Shown: in pieces, positions 5,406-51,125 of the stretch
Layout: every line of letters begins with the position of its first letter
Position numbering within the stretch: the first letter of the stretch is position 1
Assembly (NCBI GenBank): GCA_964016885.1
Contig: OZ024743.1
Location: 77,128,001-77,192,000 of the forward strand
Length of the DNA: 64,000 nucleotides
From: Eledone cirrhosa
Lineage: Eukaryota
Direction: 5' to 3'
Translations under genes and position numbers: made by a program
The notes under the pieces: generated by a model
What the model was told of the DNA's origin: nothing
Seen by the model: the letters and a program-made list of their open reading frames with translations, nothing else
Database searches by the model: none

Positions 5406-5605
5406 NNNNNNNNNNNNNNNNNNNNNNNNNNNNNNNNNNNNNNNNNNNNNNNNNNNNNNNNNNNNNNNNNNNNNNNNNNNNNNNNNNNNNNNNNNNNNNN
5501 NNNNNNNNNNNNNNNNNNNNNNNNNNNNNNNNNNNNNNNNNNNNNNNNNNNNNNNNNNNNNNNNNNNNNNNNNNNNNNNNNNNNNNNNNNNNNNNNNNNN
5601 NNNNN
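5406..5605. other. Assembly gap (200 N)
   Basis: Run of n. Confidence 1.
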
Positions 5606-7911
5606 CTGACTGAAGGCTTATCCGGTCATCCACGCCATTGATGACCTTTTGGAGCTTGGAATCATCAGCGAAAATTTTAATGTTGCTGTGTTTGATGATG
5701 TCAGTGATGTCATTAATATAGATGATGAAGAGAAGTGGGCCCAACACAGTGCCTTGTGGGACTCCACTACTGACTTTGGCTGGGCTTGATTTGACTCCCT
5801 CAACTACAACATGTTGGGTTCTGTTTGACAGGAAGCTCTTGATCCACTGCAGCAGCTTTCCAGTGACACCAATATTGGACAGCTTTCTCAGTAGAATGTT
5901 ATGATCAACCCTGTCAAAGGCCTTGCTGAAATCAAGGTAGATAACATCAGTGTTGGAACCCTCTCCCAAGGCTCTCAAAATGTCATCAAAGTGATGCAGT
6001 AGTTGCGTCAGGCAATCCCTTCCATTACGGAATCCATGCTGGTTGGAGTTCAGCATATTGTTACTCTCAAGGAAGTGGGTCATTCGCGATCTCACCACTC
6101 GCTCAAATACCTTAATGATATGAGAGGTGAGTGAGATTGGACGGTAATTCACGGCAAGGGATTTGTTTCCCTTTTTGAAAACTGGGACAACAGACTGGGA
6201 TAGGTTTTCTGGCACATATCCAGCATCCAGTGAGTTCCGCCACAGATTGGCAAGAGGAGAAGCAAGTTGGTGTTGACACGCCTTCAAGACACAAGCAGGG
6301 AACCTATCGGGACCTACTGCTGAATTATGCTTGATTTCCTTTATTGCCGCCAAGACATCAGGGGCGCCAAACGTTATGTCCGATAAGGTGTAATGGGGAG
6401 TAACATCGCCGATACAGCCCAGATCGGCCATATCAGGATTGCTGAAAACAGAGCAGTATTGTTTCTGCAGTATCTCACCCATGGTTTTAGCATTGTCTTG
6501 AAGAGTGCCATTTTCATCAATTAGAGGGCCAACAGTAGAGCCAGTGATTTTGTGTTTTTTTGCAAATGAAAAGAACACTTTGGGATTGAGTTTGATCTTC
6601 TCAATGGCCCAGGCCTCTTCAGCTCTTCTCTGATTGTTGATGAGGGACATTATGTTGTTTTGGAGGTTATGTTTTTTAATCTCTAGTGATGAAATGGCAG
6701 TCAAGTTGATGTGTTGCTGCTGACAGTATTTCAGCTTGTTGATTTTTTTGTTCGTTCTCTTAATTTTTCTGATGAGCGTTTTTCTATTTCTAGGGATTCT
6801 GCTCTTAGATTTGTTTATAGTTCTTAATGGGGTGTGTTTAGCACATATGTTTGTAACAGTGTCCACAAATGTCTGCCAGGACTTTTTGATGTTAGTGGGT
6901 GTATGAGTGTGCGTGAAGGACCAGTCGACATGTGCAAGATCATGACTGATCGCTTCCCAGTTTGCATTGTGGAAATCCATAGCGTCAAACGGATGGACAG
7001 GAGAGATGACATTGGGTTTGTATATTGGACGGTGGAATCTCAGATCACAGAGAACCATGTCATGATCAGAGAGTAGAGTTTTCTCCACTGCAATATTGTG
7101 GATATTGTCAGTGTGATTGCTGAAAATTAAGTCTAGGACGTTTTTGTGGCACCTCGTTGGTTTGAGCACTAGTTGGGATAGGAAGAAATCATCCATGAAG
7201 TCAAGAAGCGATTCCACAGCTTCCCTGTCAGAGGTTGAGGCAGAAGAACCTGGTGGCAGGGTGTTTGTGGACCAGTCAACTCCGGGGAGGTTGAAGTCCC
7301 CCATCATTAAGATGTTGTCAGGGTGACACTCTTGGATGAAACACTTTATGCTGTTGAGGCATTCCTTGAAGCATGGTACAGGCGTTTGGGGTGGCCTATA
7401 GAGCCCAACTACTAATAGGTTGTTGGTTTGACTGAATACAGTGACTGCCTCACAGTATCCATTAGTGAATATGTTCATAGCCTCTGTTGAGAAAGAATTA
7501 TGGACATAAATGGCAGTTCCGCCCTTTCTTCTGCCAGCGCGATCAGCACGGATGGCTTTGAAATTTTTCACGTTCACCTCGGCTTCCAAGTGGAGGTTAC
7601 TGAGATGGGTTTCAGTGAGGACGAAGAAAGGGATGTGGTTTGGATGGACATCAATCCAGTCCTCCAGGAATTTGATCTTCCATGTTTGAGTATTGGTGGA
7701 AGGGCTGATGCCTTGGGCATTAAGCAAAAATGTAGAGGCGAGAGTGGATGGTTTTAATTGTTTTGGTGTGTTGTTAATTTGTTTGTTTGTTAATGGCAGC
7801 AATGGGAGTTTGTGCAGTGGGGTGATAGTGGAGGGTGGTGCTGGGTGATAGCTCGAATGTTTTTTTCCAGTTCTTTTGCCAGATTCATTATGGCTAAAAA
7901 AGAGGAAGAAG
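5606..7911 (-). mobile_element. CR1/L2-group LINE ORF2 (AP endonuclease + reverse transcriptase); 3' part lost in gap
   Basis: Uninterrupted frame with APE motifs (LLNAQG, LTETHL, YRPP, MGDFN, LDLIF, SDH) and RT motifs (YRPISLTS, QHGFR, DFSKAFD, GVPQGTVLGPLLF, FADD). Confidence 0.9.
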
Positions 7912-7939
7912 TATATATATATATATGTATATATATATG

Positions 7940-7972
<33 letters not shown>

Positions 7973-7981
7973 GTATATGTA

Positions 7982-9475
7982 TCATCATCATCATCATCAT
8001 CAGCGTTTAACGTCCGTGTTCCACGCTTGCATGGGTTTGGACGGGGGTAGTCCCACTTGAGGCAAGAGTGATTGTCTTGCTCGCATAGGACTGTCTGGCA
8101 GGTTTTCTACAGTTGGATGCCCTTCCTAACACCAACCACATTTACAGTGTGGGTCTGGGAGGTTTTTACCGTGTTGCCTACACGGCCACATTACAGCGTG
8201 GACTGTGTGTTTTTTTTGTCGTGACACCTACACGATCTCATTTGTTTCGGCCTCGATGGCGCGGCACCAACATAACTTTACATAGAACGGGGTGGTGTGG
8301 ATCGGGTGGGGGTGGTGGGACGGGGTGTATTTGTTAGAGATGCCTACTGGCTGGAGTAGGTTTTACTATATATTTAGGTAAGGCGGGTCTTCTCTGTTAC
8401 TGAGTACCGCCAAAGGTCTCGGTCCAGTGACATTGTCTTGGAGAGGTGTAAGTGTGTGATGTCGGAGTTTATCAGCTCGTCCCAGGTTTTTCTAGGTCTG
8501 CCTATTCCGTGACTACCGTCTATCTTTATTGCCCTGCACTTTGTTATACAGCTATCGACTTTCATGCGCATCACGTGTCCATACCAACGTAGCCTTCTCT
8601 CGAGTAAACAACATCTGATCCCTCTTATCTCTAATTTATTCCTTAGTTCGTTTATGCTTTGCCGTTCACGTATATTACTGTTACACATCCAGCGGAGCAT
8701 GCAAGCTTCGTTCCTCTCTAGTCTGCGTATATCCTCTGCACACAATGCCCAGGTCTCACTGCCATGCAGCATTGCTGTTCGTATGCAGGCATCGTACAAC
8801 CTGCCTTTCATTTTTAGTGAGAACCCTTTAGCAGCTAATAGTGGTATAAGCTCTCTGAACTTTTTCCAACCAGTTCTGACTCTAGCTACAGTACTTTCAG
8901 AGCACCCTCCCCCACTGCTGATTTTATCGCCCAGGTAACGGAAGCTGTCCACTATTTCTATAGAACCCTCTGCGCAATTGAAAGAGCTAGTAGTTTGTGG
9001 GCACTTGCTGCTACTTATTGCACCAGAGCACCGGCCACATGTAAAATCTATGTTCTTAGTTAGCCTACCTGTGATCCCACTACATCTTTTATGCACCCAT
9101 ACTTTGCATTTAGGACATAAAATGGAGTTTCTACCTACGCCTTTCCTACACACCGAGCACGACCATTTCCCAGAAGGGACCGCCGCCTTGTTTTCTTTCC
9201 TACAAACTAGTACTTTGGTCTTAGCCAGGTTAATTTTAAGTCCTTTTGACTCTAGGCCGTGCTTCCATGTTTGGAATTTCTTCTCTAGCTCGGCCATTGA
9301 TTCCGCTATGAGTGTCAGGTCGTCTGCGTATAGGAGTTCCCATGGGCAGCCTGTCTTGAACTCCTCTGTTATGGCCTGAAGGGCAATAATAAATAGTAGT
9401 GGACTGAGAACAGAGCCCTGATGGACGCCGACTTTTACGCTAAACTCTTCACTATATTCGTTGTGAAGAGTTTAG
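7982..9475 (-). mobile_element. 5'-truncated RTE LINE copy (RT C-terminus, PHD, 3'UTR, (GAT)n tail)
   Basis: Near-identical reverse complement of about 12808-14294; ORF 8374-9297 differs from the intact copy by about two residues. Confidence 0.95.
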
Positions 9476-9594
9476 TATATATATATATATGTATATATAT
9501 GTATATATATATGTATATATGTATATATGTGTATATATATATATATGTGTATATATATATATGTGTATATATATATATATGTGTATATATATAT

Positions 9595-9686
<92 letters not shown>

Positions 9687-9711
9687 GTGTATATATATAT
9701 ATGTATATATA

Positions 9712-9742
<31 letters not shown>

Positions 9743-10003
9743 GTGTGTATATATGTGTATATATATATATATATGTATATATATGTATGTATATGTATAT
9801 ATATGTATATGTATATATATGTATATATATATATATATGTATGTATATGTATATATATATATATATATGTATATATATGTATATGTATATATATATATGT
9901 ATATATATGTATATATATATATATGTATATATATGTATATGTATATATATTTATATATATATATATGTATATATACATATATGTATATATATATATATAT
10001 GTA
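9476..10003. repeat. (TA)n/(TATG)n array
   Basis: Direct reading. Confidence 0.97.
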
Positions 10004-10009
10004 GATTTC

Positions 10010-10342
10010 ATTTTTTTTTTTTTTTTTTTTTTTTCTTTCCTGCTTGCAAGGGTGGGACGGGAACTGATTCTGGCATGATTTCTACAGCTGGATGCCCTTC
10101 CTAACACCAACCTCATTTACAGTGAGTGCTGGGTGCTTTTTTGCCGTGGCACCTCCACGACCACTTTGCAGTGGAATGATAGAGACCCCAGTCCCTATCA
10201 TCTCATTTCTACAGCTGAGTAAACTGGAGCAATGTGAAATAAAGTCTCTTGCTCAAGGAAACAACACATCACCCGGTCTGAGAATTGAACTCACAACCTT
10301 TCGATTGCAAGGCCAATGCTCTAACCACTAAGCCATATGCCT

Positions 10343-10345
<3 letters not shown>
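10010..10345 (-). mobile_element. Full-length composite SINE (family B): tRNA-like head, Nin/Deu-like central domain, RTE-derived tail, poly(A)
   Basis: Minus strand: box A TGGCTTAGTGG, box B GAGTTCAATTC, then TGTTGTTTCCTTGAGCAAGAGACTTTATTTCACATTGCTCCAG, then the RTE 3'UTR segment GGTTGGTGTTAGGAAGGGCATCCAGCTGTAGAAA and an A-run. Confidence 0.8.
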
Positions 10346-10420
<75 letters not shown>

Positions 10421-10619
10421 ATATATATATATATATATATGTGTATATATATATATATATGTGTATATATATATATATGTGTGTGTATATATATATATAT
10501 GTGTATATATATATATATATGTGTGTGTATATATATATATATGTGTATATATATATATATATATGTATGTGTATATATATGTATGTGTATATATATATAT
10601 ATGTGTGTGTATATATATA

Positions 10620-10664
<45 letters not shown>

Positions 10665-10725
10665 ATATATATATATATGTGTGTGTGTATATATATATAT
10701 ATATGTATGTGTGTGTATATATATA

Positions 10726-10768
<43 letters not shown>

Positions 10769-10816
10769 ATATATATATATATATGTGTGTATATATATAT
10801 ATATATGTGTAATATA

Positions 10817-10848
<32 letters not shown>
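10346..10848. repeat. (TA)n/(TATG)n array
   Basis: Direct reading. Confidence 0.97.
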
Positions 10849-13800
10849 ACGCAATCCAAAACCTCAGAGTTGGTACCATAAATGTAGGCACCCTAAAGGG
10901 TCGCGCTAACGAGGTTGTAGAAATGCTTGAACGTAAGGAGGTCGATGTTTGTTGTATTCAAGAGACCAGGTGGAGGGGTGGGTCTGCTAGGTTCATTGAG
11001 GGTAAAAAACGATGTTATAAGCTTTTCTGGGTGGGAAACGACGATGGGCTGGGTGGAGTAGGAATCATGGTAGCAGAAAAGTGGGCAGATAAGATAATAG
11101 ACGTAAATAGAGTGAACGACAGAATAATTAAAATACGACTTGTCCTCAATAGAACTACGGTGACAGTAATATCTGCGTACGCACCCCAATCCGGACTGCC
11201 CGACACTATAAAAGACAGATTCTATGAGACACTGATGCTAACTACCTCCCAAATATCCGACAGTGACTATATAATTATCGCAGGCGACCTAAATGGTCAC
11301 GTTGGACAACATTGTGACGGCTACGACGAAATCCATGGAGGCTATGGGTTTGGTACTAGAAATGAGGAAGGCTCCAGAATCCTGGAATTCTGTGATGCAA
11401 ATAACCTAACTATCTGTAACACTAACTTCAAAAAACGTGACAATCACCTGATCACCTATAGATCCGGGGAACACACAAGCCAGGTAGATTATATCCTTAC
11501 CAGAAGACGTGACAGAGTGTCTGTTGTAAACACTAAATCCCTCCCCCATGAAGAATGCACCTCCCAACATAGACTGATAATTAGCGACCTCATAGTCAGG
11601 ACGAGACGTACTCGACAACAGAAGAGGACTATCCTCAGGAGGAAAATATGGAAGCTAAAGGACCCCACAGCCAGGAATAAATTTCAAAGCATATTACTTG
11701 ATGCTTTCGACAGTAAGGAAGAACATTTAGAGTCGGACAATATAGAGGGAGAGTGGGAATTTCTGAAAGCAAACCTGCTGTTGGCGAGAGACGAAGTCTG
11801 TGGCTGGAGCAGGCCTGTAGGCAGGAGGAGAGTAACATGGTGGTGGAACAGTAAGGTGGAGGGGTCAATTAAGGCCAAAAAGCAGGCTTGGAAAGTATGG
11901 CGGGATGGGGGAAGTAGAGAAGACTATCAAGTGGCCAGGAGGGAAGCTAGGAGACAAGTGTACTTAGCAAGAAGGGAAGCTGAGGAAAGAAAGTTCAAGC
12001 ATGTTCTACAACGCGATGACCAAAAACGTGAGGTGTTCAGGATTGCTAGGCAATGCGTCAAGGAAAACCGTGATATTGTCGGGGAGAAGTGTGTACTAAA
12101 CGACGATGGCACACTTGCCATCACCGACGCTGATAAGAAGGTAGCTTGGAAGTGTCACTATGAAAGGCTACTAAATGAGGAGAATAATTGGGAGAAAGGC
12201 AGTCTCCCCCATATCGACCCAATAGAGGGACCAGCAGTGTTAGTCGAGGGGAGTATAATAAGTAAGGCAATCAAGGATATGAAGACTGGTAAGGCGGCTG
12301 GGCCTTCGGAAATAGTTGCTGAGATGCTGAAGGCATCTGGCACGGTGGGACACACCATGGTCACCCGCATAGTTAACCAAGTCGTACAGAATGGGGTTGT
12401 TCCGAAGGACTGGCATAGCAGCATCATCGTTAACTGTTATAAGGGTAAAGGAGACGCCCTAGATAGGAGTAACTATAGAGGCATTAAATTAATCGACCAG
12501 GTCATGAAGGTCACGGAAAAAGTAATAGCGCAACTAATCAGAGAGAGAATTGACCTAGATGAAATGCAGTTCGGGTTTGTGTCAGGCAAAAGTACCACAG
12601 ACGCTCTTTTCATAGTACGACAACTACAGGAGAAGTACCTAGCTAAAGGTAAACCCCTCTACTTAGCTTTTGTCGACTTGGAGAAAGCCTTCGACAGAGT
12701 CCCCCGCTCCATTATCTGGTGGGCTCTTAGAAAACTAGGCGTTGCCGAATGGCTTGTGAGGGCTATACAAGCCATGTATAAAGAAACAGTCAGCAAGGTT
12801 AGAATTAACAACGAATATAGTGAAGAGTTTAGCGTAAAAGTTGGCGTCCATCAGGGCTCTGTTCTCAGTCCACTACTATTTATTATTGCCCTTCAGGCTA
12901 TAACAGAGGAGTTCAAGACAGGCTGCCCATGGGAACTCCTATACGCAGACGACCTGACACTCATAGCGGAATCAATGGCCGAGCTAGAGAAGAAATTCCA
13001 AACATGGAAGCACGGCCTAGAGTCAAAAGGACTTAAAATTAACCTGGCTAAGACCAAAGTACTAGTTTGTAGGAAAGAAAACAAGGCGGCGGTCCCTTCT
13101 GGGAAATGGTCGTGCTCGGTGTGTAGGAAAGGCGTAGGTAGAAACTCCATTTTATGTCCTAAATGCAAAGTATGGGTGCATAAAAGATGTAGTGGGATCA
13201 CAGGTAAGCTAACTAAGAACATAGATTTTACATGTGGCCGGTGCTCTGGTGCAATAAGTAGCAGCAAGTGCCCACAAACTACTAGCTCTTTCAATTGCGC
13301 AGAGGGTTCTATAGAAATAGTGGACAGCTTCCGTTACCTGGGCGATAAAATCAGCAGTGGGGGAGGGTGCTCTGAAAGTACTGTAGCTAGAGTCAGAACT
13401 GGTTGGAAAAAGTTCAGAGAGCTTATACCACTATTAGCTGCTAAAGGGTTCTCACTAAAAATGAAAGGCAGGTTGTACGATGCCTGCATACGAACAGCAA
13501 TGCTGCATGGCAGTGAGACCTGGGCATTGTGTGCAGAGGATATACGCAGACTAGAGAGGAACGAAGCTTGCATGCTCCGCTGGATGTGTAACAGTAATAT
13601 ACGTGAACGGCAAAGCATAAACGAACTAAGGAAAAAATTAGAGATAAGAGGGATCAGATGTTGTTTACTCGAGAGAAGGCTACGTTGGTATGGACACGTG
13701 ATGCGCATGAAAGTCGATAGCTGTATAACAAAGTGCAGGGCAATAAAGATAGACGGTAGTCACGGAATAGGCAGACCTAGAAAAACCTGGGACGAGCTGA

Positions 13801-13898
13801 TAAACTCCGACATCACACACTTACACCTCTCCAAGACAATGTCACTGGACCGAGACCTTTGGCGGTACTCAGTAACAGAGAAGACCCGCCTTACCTAA
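10849..13898 (+). CDS. RTE ORF: AP endonuclease, reverse transcriptase, PHD finger, RTE C-terminus (native start codon missing)
   Basis: [42 protein letters not shown]; [64 protein letters not shown]; stop TAA at 13896-13898. Confidence 0.93.
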
Positions 13899-17710: not shown

Positions 17711-18978
17711 ACTGGGGTCTTTAGAAACCCGTGATATGTTTTCAATCTTAAATGAAAATGACTAAAAAATATTTTTCACCTTGGAACAATATTTCTATAA
17801 ACTACAAAGGAATTTTTATTTGCTGCTTTTTAAAAAGATAATTGTATTTATACGGGGAAATGTTTTAGTGAAACCTTTTAAAACGGTAGGAAATCTGAGT
17901 CACTCATATTAAACAAGTGGAATGCAGATGTGGAGGATAGATTTAACGAAGCTTGTGTGTAGTATGAACAAGGAGTGGTTGATTAGAATATTTTTAGTGT
18001 AAAGATAACCTGAAAGTAAGATTAATATAAGGAGGTTGTCGTTTATTAATTATTCCGAGAAGAAAAGGTTCCAATGTATCAAATACTTCGTTTCAATGTA
18101 GATATGACTGAAGCTATAGGGAAATATTTTCATAATCCAATGTGTCCGACACAAGCACTAACACTTCTACCACACGCCCTTCATCACTCATACATAAACA
18201 CACGAAATGTCAAGCTTCAGTGATTTCAGGTAGAATTCTGTCTTCTATAAAAGAACATTGCTACATCACAACATTAACTAAAGGTGTGTGTGTGTGTGAG
18301 AGAGCGACATATATATTTATTTTGATAATACTGTCCTAATTAGAATTAAATAAAGATAGTAATAATGGAATATGACAATAGAAATTTCGTCTGAATGTGT
18401 GAGACTACTGCTGACATATGATTCTTCAAATATTTAGATCTAATTTGAATATGGAAACCACTTCCTTCTGTAACGATAAACATATAATATATTTATCTAC
18501 CCTTAGAGAAACACTTATTTTCTAATTATATTTACTGTTCCGAGACAGTAGTGATTTAGCGAAATATTGACTACGCTGTTCGTCACCATATCGACTAAAT
18601 AAATTTATTATATATTATATTATAGGAAAGAATGTAACTAAATATATGGTTACTCTCCCTGTCTGTGACGAAGTAAAAAATGATCCAATATGTCAAACTC
18701 CAACACCAGCTGAAGGTTTGTTTATATAGTTTTAGATGGTAGCTGCAGAGAGAAAGAAATATGTCTGTAGACGATATTTCTGGCATATCACTAAGTATGA
18801 TTAGATATTTGATTTTTGAAGATTTTAATAAATTATTTAACTGTAAAATTGCAATTTCTCATATCAACATCTCTTCAGACTGTTTATTTTTAATTTGTTC
18901 ATCACTGCTTCAGTATGACATTTTTATGTAATAATTTACTAATGAAAGTGTATTAAATAGAGTGAAGAGTACTACTGA

Positions 18979-26895: not shown

Positions 26896-27649
26896 ATACA
26901 TTAGAAACCTTTGAAATGTGGGTATATAGATTTTTGAGAATATTGTAGACAGAACACATAACCGCCCATAAAGTAATAAGTGACAAAAACTGAAATTTTT
27001 TCAATTAAAAATATTTTAAAAGTGAAAATAGTTTATAGAAATAGTGAATAGAAAGCAAAATGAATGGGTAGCAGTTTGCTGTGTATTGTAATTTTTTGTG
27101 TATGAGGGGACCTCCAAACCTGAAGTGTCCCAGGGCCCACCAAATCTGAAGTGCTCCAGGCCACTCAAAGTCTAAATCCAACCCTGATCATCATCAACAA
27201 CACCGTTTAACATTCATTTTTCCACACTAGCATGGGTTAGATGAGTTGTCCCATTATGAGACAAGTCTCTGGTATCTGTATATTTCTCAGTAAATACTGC
27301 AGTAGCTGTGTTGAACAGCAAGCTCTTCATCTATAGATAACACTCAACAGTATCTGGCGTAGTTATACAGGCAGTTGTTTTATGGAAAGAGTCTGTCTAA
27401 CATCACATCAGTTACAGACTGTTGTTTCAAAATAACTATCTGCTGCTTGATGTTACTAAATTGTTATATCTGCATACCAGACTTTTCATTGACATCAGGC
27501 TGTCTGGCTTCCTATATCGTCAACAACCAATGAGTACTGTTGTGGCTGATTATTCACAACACTACCATGTGATCTGAACCAACCAACAGCAGCTCTTTAT
27601 AACCTCTACTTTCAACCACAGCTCCATTGTTTCTTATTTAGCCACTTAC

Positions 27650-27712
27650 TATACCTGAAGAATTAAACTTGTTTCTTTGTCTTTGGAAACCCACTGGTAA
27701 TGCACAAATAAA
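27650..27712 (+). ncRNA. Degenerate hammerhead motif
   Basis: CTGAAGA at 27655; GAAA-CC-CACT-GG-TA at 27686-27699; AATAAA follows; stems I and II pair poorly. Confidence 0.35.
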
Positions 27713-27974
27713 TGAAACTGATAACACATATGTTCAACTTCCACATTGTGTTGGTTGCTTTTTTCATTTGTTTATACCCACACCAGTGCTCTCTCCACCT
27801 CTCTCTATATACCCATGCTAGCGTGGAAGATAGATTTTAAACTATGATAATGATATATATATATATATTAAACTTAAGCCAAGTCAGATTTTGAGGGGGA
27901 ATATTTGATGTTTTATTACTTCTCTGAGTTGATAATTAATATATTTTATCCTTTCATTGATGCAACAATGTCAC

Positions 27975-28080
27975 ATTGCCAGTCTGAAGAGCAGATCGAG
28001 ATCGATACTAGAGCTGGGTCCATAACTCCTATGGGTGACCCTGAGCCCATCCTCTGCGAAACGTGTGTAACAGATCAATA
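27975..28080 (+). ncRNA. Type I minimal hammerhead ribozyme with intact core
   Basis: CTGAAGA 27984-27990; stem II GCAGA/TCTGC; GAAA 28058-28061; C-GTGT-G; GTA triplet with cut after 28069; stem I GT/AC plus ATTG/CAAT; AATAAA downstream. Confidence 0.7.
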
Positions 28081-28289
28081 CACAATAAAAATCTAAATAC
28101 ATGTAAACAAAACTTCACTGTTCTTATATATATATATATATATATGTATATAAAAGTAGAAGTGGTATTTAATTTGTTGGAAGTCCAACAAACATAAATG
28201 TTTATAACTGATTTAGAGCACTCAACAATTACTGGAGTAAATATTCAATGATATTAAATAAATGGAAACTATATTTATAAAACCATATT

Positions 28290-28354
28290 TATTTTATTAT
28301 ATATATTTCAAGGGAAACCAAGACAACTTTGGTACGCTTTCATCAGATAAAATA
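28290..28354 (-). ncRNA. Type I minimal hammerhead ribozyme with intact core
   Basis: Minus strand TATTTTAT-CTGATGA-AAG..ACC.AAG-TTGT-CTT-GGT..CTT-GAAA-T-ATAT-A-TA-ATAAAATA; perfect 8-bp stem I. Confidence 0.72.
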
Positions 28355-28428
28355 CAAAGTTTGTTTTATAAATAGAGACATACCCATGAAAATCATACCT
28401 TATAGGTTGGAAATTCACTGGATAGTGG

Positions 28429-28479
<51 letters not shown>

Positions 28480-28760
28480 GAATAAATATAACCAGGATTA
28501 GATTACATTAAATTACTTAATTGATTTATGTTTCAATCAGTACAGTAGGAAAATAAGTTTCAACTGTATTGATCGTATTCTGGTTAGTGATGTTGTAAAA
28601 CAACTGAGATTGGAAATTTACCGATTGGATTAAACTTTGAACTGTTTTTTACCTATCTTGCTGTGGACTATAAAATCACATTTGAACTTTGAAATATTCT
28701 TTGCCTTTATATGGTTGTGTTATCAACTTGTCTAAACTATATATATATATATATATATAT

Positions 28761-29398
28761 AGGGATCAGATGTTGTTTACTGGAGAGAAGACTACATTGG
28801 TATGGTCACGTGATGCGCATGAAAGACGACAGCTGTATAAAAAAGTGCAGGGCAATAAAAATAGATGGTAGCCACGGAGTAGGCAGACCCAGAAAAACCT
28901 GGGATTACTTGATAAATTCCGACCTCACACACTTACACCTCTCCAAGACAATGTCACTGGACCGAGATCTTTGGCGCTACACAGTAATACAGAAGACCCG
29001 CCTTGCCTAAGTACAAAGCGAAACCTACAGTCAGTAGGCACCTCTTAACAAAAATACACCCCCGTCCCACTACCCCCACCCCACCCACACCACCCCTTTC
29101 GATGTAAAGTTATGTTTGTACCACAACATCCAGTCCGAAATAAATGAGGTCGTGTAGGTGTCACGGCAAAAAAACACACAGTTCACACTTCAATGTGGCC
29201 GTGTAGGTAACACGGTAAAAACCTCCCAGTCCACACTGTAAACGTGGTTGGTGTTAGGAAGGGCATCCAGCCGTAGAAAACCCGCCAGACAGTCCTATAC
29301 GAGCACGACAACCAATCTTGCCTCAAGTGGGAAAATTCCAGTCCAAACCCATGCAAGCATGGAAGATGGACATTAAATGATGATGATGATGATGATGA

Positions 29399-47880: not shown

Positions 47881-50655
47881 TCATCATCATCATCATCGTT
47901 TAACGTCCGTATTCCACGCTTGCATGGGTTTGGACGGAGGGTTTTCCCACTTGAGACAAGAGTGGTTATCTTGCTCGCATAGGACTATCTGGCGGGTTTT
48001 CTACAGCTGGATGCCCTTCCTAACACCAACCACATTTACAGTGTGGGGCTGGGAGGTTTTTACCGTGTTGCCTACACGGCCACATTACAGCGTGAACTGT
48101 GTGTTTTTTTGACGTGACACCTACACGATCTCATTAGTTTCGGCCTGGATGTTGTGGCACCAACATAACTTTACATTGAAAGGGGCGGTGTGGATGGGGT
48201 GGGGGTGGTGGGGCGGGGGTGTATTTTGTTTTGTTAGAGATGCCTACTGACTGTAGTAGGTTTTACTATGTATTTAGGTAAGGCGGGTCTTCTCTATTAC
48301 TGAGTACCGCCAAAAGTCTCGGTCCAGTGACATTGTCTTGGTGAGGTGTAAGTGTGTGAGGTCGGAATTTATCAGCTCGTCCCAGGTTTTTCTGGGTCTG
48401 TCTATTCCGTGGCTACCGTCTATCTTTATTGCCCTGCACTTTGTTATACAGCTATCGTCCTTCATGCGCATCACGTGACCATACCAACGTAGCCTTCTCT
48501 CGAGTAAACAACATCTGATCCCTCTTATTTCTAATTTTTTCCTTAGTTCGTTTATGCTTTGCCGTTCACGTATATTACTATTACACATCCAGCGGAGCAT
48601 GCAAGCTTCGTTTCTCTCTAGTCTGTGTATATCCTCTGCACACAATGCCCAGGTCTCACTGCCATGCAACATTGCTGTTCGTATGCAGGCATCGTACGAC
48701 CTGCCTTTCATTTTTAGGGAGAACCCTTTAGCGGCTAATAGTGGTATGAGCTCTCTGAACTTTTTCCACCCAGTTCTGACTCTAGCTACTGTACTTTCAG
48801 AGCACCCTCCCCACTGCTGATTTTGTCACCCAGGTAACGGAAGCTGTCCACTATTTCTATAGAACCCTCTGCGCAGTTGAAAGAGCTAGTATTTTGTGGG
48901 CACTTGCTGCTACTTATTGCCCCAGAACACCGGCCACATGTAAAATCTATGTTCTTAGTTAGCTTACCTGTGATCCCACTACATCTTTTATGCACCCAAA
49001 CTTTGCATTTGGGACACAAAATGGAGTTTCTACCTACACCTTTCCTACACTCTGAGCATGGTCACTTCCCGGAGGGGACCGCCGCCTTATTTTCTTTCTT
49101 ACAAACTAGAACTTTAGTCTTAGCCAGGTTAATTTTAAGGCCTTTTGATTCTAGGCCGTGCTTCCATGTTTGGAATTTCTTCTCTAGCTCGGCCATTGAT
49201 TCAGCTATGAGCGTTAGATCATCTGCGTATAGGAGTTCCCATGGGCAGCCGGTCTTGAACTCCACTGTTATAGCCTGGAGGGCAATAATAAATAGTAGGG
49301 GGCTAAGAACAGAGCCCTGATGAACACCAACTTTTACACTAAACTCTTCACTATATTCGTTGTTAATTCTAACCTTGCTGACTGTTTCTTTATACATGGC
49401 TTGTATAGCTCTCACAAGCCATTCATCAACACCTAGTTTTCTAAGAGCCCACCAGATAATGGAACGGGGGACTCTGTCGAAGGCTTTCTCCAAGTCGACG
49501 AAAGCTAAGTATAGGGGTTTACTTTTAGCTAGGTACTTCTCCTGTAGTTGTCGTACAATGAAAAGAGCGTCTGTGGTACTTTTTCCTGACACAAACCCGA
49601 ACTGCATTTCATCTAGATCAATTCGCTCTCTGATTAGTTGCGCTATTACTTTTTCTGTGACCTTCATGACCTGGTCGATTAATTTAATGCCTCTATAGTT
49701 ACTCCTATCTTGTAGCAGTTAATGATGATGTTGCTACGCCAGTCCTTCGGAACAACCCCATTCTGTATGACTTGGTTTACTATCCGGGTGACCATGGTGT
49801 GTCCCACCGTACCAGATGCTTTCAGCATCTCGGCAACTATTTCCGAAGACCCAGCCGCCTTACCCGTCTTCATATCTTTGATTGCCTTACTTATTATACT
49901 ACCCTCGACTAACACTGCTGGTCCCTCTATTGGGTCGATGTGGGGGAGACTGTCTTTCTCCCATTTATTCTCCTCATTTAGTAGCCTTTCATAGTGACAC
50001 TTCCAAGCTACCTTCTTATCAGCGTCGGTGATGGCAAGTACGCCGTCATCATTAAGTACACACTTCTCCCCGACAATATCACTGTTTTCCTTGACACATT
50101 GCCTAGCAATCCTGAACACCTCACGTATTTGGTCCTCGCGTTGTAGAACATGCTTGAACTTTCTTTCCTCTGCTTCCCTTCTTGCGAAGTACACTTGTCT
50201 CCTCGCTTCCCTCCTGGCCACTTGATAGTCTTCTCTACTTCCCCCATCCCGCCATACTTTCCAAGCCTGCTTTTTGGCCTTAATTGACTCCTCCACCTTA
50301 CTGTTCCACCACCATGTTACTCTCCTCCTGCCAACAGGTCTGCTCCAGCCACAGACTTCGTCTGTCGCCATCAGCAGGTTTGCTTTCAGAAATTCCCACT
50401 GTCCCTCTATATTGTCCGACTCTAAATGCTCTTCCTTACTGTCGAAAGCATCAAGTAATATGCTTTGAAATTTATTTTTGGCTGTGGGGTCCTTTAGCTT
50501 CCATATTTTTCTCCTGAGGATAGTCCTCTTCTGTTGTCTAGTACGTCTCGCCCTGACTATTAGGTCGCTAATTATCAGTCTATGTTGGGAGGTGCATTCT
50601 TCATGGGGGAGGGATTTAGTGTTTACAACAGTCACTCTGTCACATCTTCTGGTAA
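47881..50655 (-). mobile_element. 5'-truncated, frameshifted RTE LINE copy
   Basis: ORF pieces 49679-50655, 49062-49667, 48786-49019 and 48274-48711 are collinear with the intact ORF; (GAT)n tail runs into (TA)n. Confidence 0.95.
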
Positions 50656-50664
50656 TATATATAT

Positions 50665-51125
50665 TAATGTGGTTGTGTAAGTAGCATGGTAAAAAGCTCC
50701 CAGTCCACACTGTAAATGTGGTTGGATTTAGAAGGGCATCCATCCATAGAAAACCTGCCAGATATAGTCCTATACGAGTGAGACACGGTCACCCGATCAT
50801 TCTTGCCCCAAGTGGGACAATTCCCGTCTAACTCTTGTTAGCGTGGAAGATAGACGTTTTTTTTTTTTTTGCTGTGGTTGTGGAGGTGCCACGGCAAAAA
50901 AGCACCCAGCCCACACTGTAAAGTGGACATGTAGACGCCATGGAAAAAAAGCACTCAGCACTCACTGTAAATGAGGTTGGTGTTAGGAAGGGCATCCAGC
51001 TGTAGAAATCAAGCCAGAATCAGTTCCCGTCACACACTTGCAAGCAGGGAAAAGCGGACGTAAAATGATGATGATGTCCCACCCTTGCAAGCAGGGAAAA
51101 AGCGGACGTAAAATGAAATGATGAA
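50665..51125 (+). mobile_element. Stacked RTE and SINE-B 3' tails with a duplicated terminal segment
   Basis: Two tail motifs; cttgcaagcagggaaaagcggacgtaaaatga occurs twice. Confidence 0.8.

Follow-up and report, generated by a model that had tools for sequence, protein, structure and literature searches.

Two type I hammerheads in the window

We analyze a window of 64 kb of Eledone cirrhosa DNA, in which the initial annotation had pointed out two convergent hammerhead ribozymes with intact catalytic cores. A descriptor scan of both strands of the 64 kb finds exactly two type I hammerheads, and they coincide with those two motifs, here named A (plus strand) and B (minus strand). Both have the CUGAnGA and GAAA boxes of the core together with a cut site of NUH form, by which we recognize a type I hammerhead. 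Hammerhead positions are numbered, and double hammerheads drawn, following common usage. The features of the locus, in window coordinates, are:

27969..28125 (end approximate), plus strand: 3' end (pseudo-LTR) of family A, 5'-truncated, assigned to an old, decayed Penelope-like element (PLE) with a Hydra-type endonuclease
27975..28079, plus strand: type I hammerhead A (from sequence, descriptor scan and folding)
27984-27990, plus strand: core CTGAAGA of hammerhead A
27991-28057, plus strand: helix II region of hammerhead A, 67 nt, including a private 6-nt duplication
27991-27995 / 28053-28057, plus strand: helix II base of hammerhead A, GCAGA / TCTGC
28058-28061, plus strand: GAAA box of hammerhead A
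28061-28068, plus strand: helix III of hammerhead A, ACGTGTGT, CpG-decayed
28069, plus strand: position A17 of hammerhead A, with the predicted cut directly after it
Adjoining the core, plus strand: partial helix I of hammerhead A, of which only 2 bp lie next to the core
28084-28089, plus strand: AATAAA downstream of hammerhead A
28125..28153, no strand: (TA)n tract common to the A and B 3' ends, the likely target of the B insertion
28152..28436, minus strand: last ~285 nt (pseudo-LTR) of family B, 5'-truncated, assigned to a young Hydra-like PLE
28290..28354, minus strand: type I hammerhead B (from sequence, descriptor scan, covariation and pattern counts)
28354-28347 / 28297-28290, minus strand: helix I of hammerhead B, 8 bp
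28346-28340, minus strand: core CTGATGA of hammerhead B
Between the core boxes, minus strand: helix II region of hammerhead B, 30 nt, with a base of 3 bp
28309-28306, minus strand: GAAA box of hammerhead B
28306-28299, minus strand: helix III of hammerhead B, ATATATAT, palindrome AUAUAUAU
28298/28297, minus strand: predicted cut of hammerhead B
28432..28478, no strand: (TA)n tract at the B 5' junction (from sequence)

Sequence and scan together confirm the two intact cores at these positions. In the comparison with shuffled sequence that the initial annotation had proposed, 60 blockwise dinucleotide shuffles yield 0.12 loose matches per 64 kb, not one of them equal in quality to motif A or motif B, a rate that does not account for the pair. 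The proposed check with the Rfam hammerhead models came out negative: no hammerhead reaches the gathering score over the window, nor E<=10 over 27500-28900. The free minimum-energy folds of window A and window B are non-hammerhead, with a stability no better than that of shuffles (z of 0.45 and 0.38). These last two results are what speaks for taking the motifs as chance matches in AT-rich, repeat-rich DNA. Against it stand the shuffles, the thousands of genomic copies for which reversed-pattern controls give 0, and the helix covariation and fixed place at element ends described below; a chance origin is already refuted by the last three of these, and we give it practically no weight.

Family B, the minus-strand motif

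The exact B ribozyme pattern, which required the intact core, the helix II base, the palindrome and part of helix I, has 5,717 copies in the 3.0-Gb genome and 0 for the reversed-pattern control. Window B is 93-97% identical to its best genomic copies over the full query and 95.5% identical to the 3' end of the ORF-bearing locus L088, and it differs from the majority of its relatives at 7 of 284 columns.

We searched the genome with the frame adjoining one B copy (L030) and fetched 20 of the 116 listed places, L030 included, selected by long frames or high identity. A B-lineage repeat lies within 6.5 kb of the RT frame in 19 of these 20 loci, and in 18 of the 19 that were picked by RT protein alone (all but L030). 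At 10 of the 20, the repeat stands on both sides of a frame combining RT and GIY-YIG endonuclease, in direct orientation; inverted flanking repeats occur as well. Several of these single frames are open for 743-751 codons, and the paired repeats are 92-98% identical in the five elements compared. The DKT motif and the CxCX5C linker are present in 7 of 7 frames checked, the RW motif in 5 of 7 (the other two have no in-frame start region), and CxxC with CxH or CxY in the C-terminal endonuclease of all 4 complete frames; by eye, CCHH is absent from the L103 frame. This frame, a 750-aa Hydra-like RT-endonuclease (L103:1374-3623), matches 315 database proteins at E<=1e-20, and no Pfam family recognizes it or the other Hydra-like frames. 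The best 120 database relatives of the B frame are 32-48% identical to it, most with the same motifs, and the few that are named come from an octopod. Judging from this sequence context, motif B is the 3' pseudo-LTR of a young PLE whose RT and GIY-YIG frame of ~750 aa carries Hydra-clade motifs. A Naiad assignment, considered for B and for a side family F, was rejected for both because of their C-terminal endonuclease.

Among 24 B-lineage ribozymes, 98% of helix cells are paired against 35-64% in slid controls, a fraction inflated by the choice of the set with a pairing descriptor. Double changes occur at 6 of 17 pairs, in helices II and III, and helix I has G-U swaps only; the count of double-change pairs alone is reached by 33 of 500 shuffles. 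The stem covariation that the initial annotation had proposed to look for is thus present in B-lineage helices II and III and limited to G-U swaps in helix I. The genomic copies it had also proposed to look for exist for both motifs, with the 5,717 exact matches for B and 563 for an 18-mer of A.

Family A, the plus-strand motif

The window A family has 43 scored matches at 82-91% besides itself, and 2153 candidates. Aligned with 19 other loci over 152 columns, window A departs from the majority letter at 20. The exact A 18-mer counted above has a reversed-pattern control of 0, as do the A ribozymes with the palindrome ACGCGCGT, of which there are 68 exact copies. Helix III of the family is the palindrome ACGCGCGU, CpG-decayed in the window copy.

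Walking upstream of A, we find broken GIY-YIG pieces ~1.6-2.6 kb before it on the same strand in three loci (L166, L167 and L177), which share 72-75%. A search with the endonuclease peptide gives top matches of 64-75% identity, with short open frames. A is present at 5 of 14 loci chosen by this peptide alone and has no copy near the other 9; the presence expected by chance is ~1% per locus (our estimate, from a few thousand copies in 3 Gb). At all five A-bearing loci an inverted A copy precedes the endonuclease piece, and at one of them a direct copy follows it as well; A lies downstream of endonuclease remnants at L166, L167, L177 and L215. No A repeat is seen on both sides of a frame in direct orientation at the A endonuclease loci. 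The broken pieces contain CxCX5C, CxxC and CxH; no intact frame and no RW or DKT region was recovered from the family A loci examined. We assign motif A, on its sequence surroundings, to the 3' end of an older, decayed PLE with a Hydra-type endonuclease.

Genomic A copies decay neutrally, with CpG loss. The core is intact in 19 of 35 distinct A copies picked by upstream sequence, and the palindrome as well in 3 of the 35, so the intact core of window A is unremarkable. Core position 7 is G, A, T or C in 43, 31, 15 and 11 of the first 100 listed copies (hand count), and A6 is changed in 36 copies versus 563 unchanged; a free position 7 and a rarely changed A6 fit selection on the core while family A was active. 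A likeness of the A insert to a twister ribozyme finds no support in Rfam.

Predicted folding

Folding energies are nearest-neighbour estimates that leave out tertiary contacts. For the five sequences folded, the probability of the monomer hammerhead fold is 1e-3 to 1e-7. The double hammerhead is better than free monomers by 6.7 kcal/mol for intact A and by 2.0 kcal/mol for window B, and two other B-lineage copies gain 6.0 and 2.6 kcal/mol from it; for window A it is 14.0 kcal/mol worse. Dimers of PLE hammerheads are reportedly the subject of work by Lunse et al., mentioned in a review that cites it. The initial annotation had invoked cleavage as dimers through a short palindromic helix III. 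Such a palindrome characterizes both families, but the window copy of A has lost it and is predicted by folding to be inactive. The window A ribozyme is thus predicted to be dead, and that of window B could cut weakly, solely together with a second B RNA. An A-B heterodimer was considered and rejected: although 7 of the 8 helix III positions could pair, the arms of helix I mispair and the two RNAs come off opposite strands. With opposite strands and unpaired helix I arms, A and B are predicted not to partner.

PLE hammerheads with a short palindromic helix III are described as cleaving slowly and in dimeric form, and the processing of tandem precursor RNA has been proposed as their role (PMC4209133, PMC6765202). 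The folding energies given above are in line with this. By the same token, the ribozyme of the parent elements here would cut a tandem precursor RNA as a double hammerhead through its palindromic helix III, and reverse transcripts begun at the 3' end would then frequently be cut short, leaving scattered solo ends.

The junction of A and B

A (TA)n tract follows 18 of 20 A 3' ends and 16 of 17 full B 3' ends, and in the window one such tract separates the two motifs. The exact A-(TA)n-B junction pattern has a single match in 3.0 Gb, which is the window itself; since the pattern is exact, decayed A-B junctions could escape it. B is absent from 19 of 19 other A loci, and A from 19 of 19 other B loci and from 40 of 40 further B loci. 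The convergent arrangement, which the initial annotation had singled out, is therefore a one-off junction by exact pattern over the genome. Its statement that the two motifs differ and do not result from a duplication is borne out, as they belong to two separate repeat families. The lower divergence of window B (7/284, against 20/152 for window A) suggests that B is the younger element and later entered the TA repeat that terminates the older A. An inverted 5'-truncated copy next to the insertion is absent at both window copies.

The initial annotation had also raised cleavage of host transcripts. One could propose that the host retains the convergent pair to cut or end transcripts of both strands, for instance a pre-mRNA and its antisense, given the two intact cores, each with an AATAAA after it. 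The AATAAA, however, belongs to the family sequences of A and B, more than half of the A copies sampled keep the core anyway, window A has no palindrome and is predicted not to fold, the A-B pair is unique in the genome, and identical B ribozymes occur elsewhere by the thousands. A Pfam scan of 83 open stretches in the window, which would miss short exons, gives no family above its cut-off, and no host gene is found there. We hold such a host function to be very improbable. The one weak Pfam hit, at 18136-18336 on the plus strand, is a match to MRP-S35 (E 0.0045, 17.3 bits versus a cut-off of 25.1) and probably arises by chance.

We are instead quite confident that the hammerheads are truncated 3' terminal repeats of two PLE families, with B likely nested in the (TA)n of A and the pair accidental. 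The convergent pair would then be ordinary transposon debris, and we predict from the folds that it does not work as a unit. As a nested insertion of two transposon ends, the locus itself is of little weight. The families offer more: young, high-copy PLEs with long frames and covarying ribozymes suit tests of the role of the hammerhead in the pseudo-LTR (pLTR).

Solo copies and retrozymes

The initial annotation had placed the motifs at the ends of small non-autonomous retroelements, with Penelope-like terminal repeats and retrozymes as the known settings. Ends of Penelope-like elements they are, since the repeats adjoin RT and GIY-YIG frames (B) or an endonuclease (A). A separate non-autonomous class is not shown by these data, in which A and B are terminal pieces of coding PLE families; no PLE frame is found in the window itself, by tblastn or in the ORF list. 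A retrozyme is by definition a head-to-tail array with the ribozyme in consecutive units (PMC7229834; bioRxiv 10.64898/2026.07.22.740005), and the window presents single units of two families placed tail to tail, which does not fit the retrozyme label. Non-LTR retrozymes do resemble A and B in being short, non-coding, akin to PLE pLTRs and equipped with type I hammerheads (PMC7229834; bioRxiv 10.64898/2026.07.22.740005), with the difference that the window has a single copy of each, both matching ends of coding elements. LTR retrozymes have type III hammerheads in paired LTRs; A and B are type I and unrelated to each other.

To describe solo copies of B, we took 40 in order from the pattern list, skipping reverse-strand partners of close pairs. 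With copies picked by ribozyme pattern alone, an inverted partial copy adjoins 19 of the 40, and ORF pieces lie near 7 of the 40 within the 2 kb fetched, a stretch too short to show most frames. The alignment extends at most 110 nt upstream of the core in 29 of the 40, mostly 55-95 nt, and several copies abut TA there. In the same set (L223-L262), B copies have two preferred 3' sites, ~110-115 and ~200 nt past the core start; together with the many starts 55-95 nt before the core, these suggest a start site or stop point inside the pLTR. Since the 5' ends of many short, solo B copies cluster 55-110 nt ahead of the core, mobilization in trans may be possible.

The solo ends could accordingly be read as dedicated short non-autonomous units, SINE-like or retrozyme-like, transcribed from a start of their own within the terminal repeat and copied in trans by the parent enzyme; the window copies would then be such units rather than truncation products, which is compatible with the nesting. 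The clustered 5' ends of the 29 copies, several at TA flanks, favor this, as do the A candidates, whose number falls from 2153 for the end to 610 and 67 for sequence farther upstream, the existence of head-to-tail B dimers (L234 and L239), and a preprint that argues for a derivation of animal retrozymes from pLTRs (bioRxiv 10.64898/2026.07.22.740005). Yet solo units hardly differ from the termini of coding elements, longer copies break off at a variety of points, some of the short B alignments are due to subfamilies absent from the reference set, a tandem array is absent at the window locus, and a fixed 5' boundary is equally expected from the start site of a full-length element. No tRNA gene is found, so no tRNA-SINE head is detected. 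Overall we consider dedicated units unlikely, and prefer to see the two window copies as truncated ends of coding PLEs.

Comparison with published elements

Hydra-clade elements are characterized by RW, DKT, CxCX5C, CxxC and CxH motifs and by (TA)n targets (Craig et al. 2021, PMC8557442), and hammerheads have been published for them, including one from octopus (PMC8557442). The elements described here share with this clade the single RT frame with C-terminal GIY-YIG endonuclease (in B), the motifs, the (TA)n targets, and a hammerhead close to the 3' end whose helix III is self-complementary, and the helix I and III layout of A resembles that of the Hydra-2_aMil ribozyme (PMC8557442). Membership of the B lineage and of A in the Hydra clade is proposed from the sequence motifs, with which blocks of reference proteins agree by eye. 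Several features set the present elements apart from the published Hydra rows of PMC8557442, among which neither the A nor the B ribozyme appears, Hydra-1_oBim included. B-lineage ribozymes have 26-36 nt from one core box to the next and A has 61, versus 12-26 for published Hydra (hand count); helix III is an even, 8-nt perfect palindrome; and the elements exceed 3 kb because of long 3' UTRs. A B 10-mer is not found in the supplement of PMC8557442, where line breaks could hide a match. By title, no paper of the octopus or cephalopod hammerhead-Penelope literature concerns families A or B, in a comparison that covered mostly open-access papers.

Like A and B, the PLE hammerheads of PMC4209133 are type I, sit in terminal repeats and occur mostly as scattered single truncated copies; they are described as having low activity and needing dimers. 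B opens helix II with A-U, unlike the G-C of those PLE hammerheads (PMC4209133). Opposite-strand hammerhead pairs 100-700 bp apart are noted in the same work (PMC4209133). In the present genome, same-family opposite-strand pairs less than 250 bp apart are inversions placed head to head (9 among the first 100 listed B copies, hand count). The window pair, by contrast, is convergent and joins two families.

Hammerheads with a long helix II

Long helix II regions are not confined to A: in three further families of this genome the core boxes stand 48-54 nt apart. The helix II of families A, D, E and F follows a common plan, in which a basal stem leads through a large inner loop to an apical hairpin, and helix III in this long-helix-II variant is 8-11 nt, palindromic or near-palindromic. 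A long helix II is not unprecedented, since two spike-moss PLE-X elements have long helix II loops (PMC8557442). Because Rfam misses hammerheads with a long helix II, the ribozymes of such genomes are likely undercounted. More tentatively, and short of an even chance in our judgment, the PLEs of this genome may use long-helix-II hammerheads (48-61 nt, missed by Rfam, in at least four unrelated families), and their thousands of solo and tandem copies (5,717 for B, 3,729 for F) may form a dimer-gated ribozyme pool not recorded before, with short units moving in trans as intermediates between pLTRs and retrozymes.

Among 221 loci scanned, there are about a dozen distinct hammerhead families with a palindromic or near-palindromic helix III. 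Further loci of such families are L171:1388-1999 and 7709, L097:5652, L183:329, L174:1596, L168:1074, L112:210, L130:797, L035:1200 and L102:430. Two identical short hammerheads stand 310 bp apart on the plus strand at L177:7321 and 7631, a possible tandem retrozyme.

Family F (L264:5473 and L263:5467, plus strand, and L267-L296) has ~50 nt between the boxes, a 10-nt palindrome and a 5-bp helix I, and 3,729 exact-pattern copies genome-wide. Many copies lie head to tail ~540-590 bp apart in runs of 2-4, and the units hold an inverted repeat; these two properties make the family look retrozyme-like. By eye, the letters of helix II change in pairs from one subfamily to another. A broken frame with RT and C-terminal GIY-YIG endonuclease, of a non-Hydra type, lies upstream of one copy.

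Other elements in the window

The window also contains near-intact and partial non-LTR RT frames at 8374-13898 (minus strand), 48274-50788 (minus strand) and 28740-29060 (plus strand), which we take to be RTE-like. Within the first, a long endonuclease and RT frame occupies 10332-13898, and 8374-9471 repeats its 3' part. Another LINE-like endonuclease and RT frame, at 5625-8006 on the minus strand, runs into a 200-base assembly gap at ~5410-5610.
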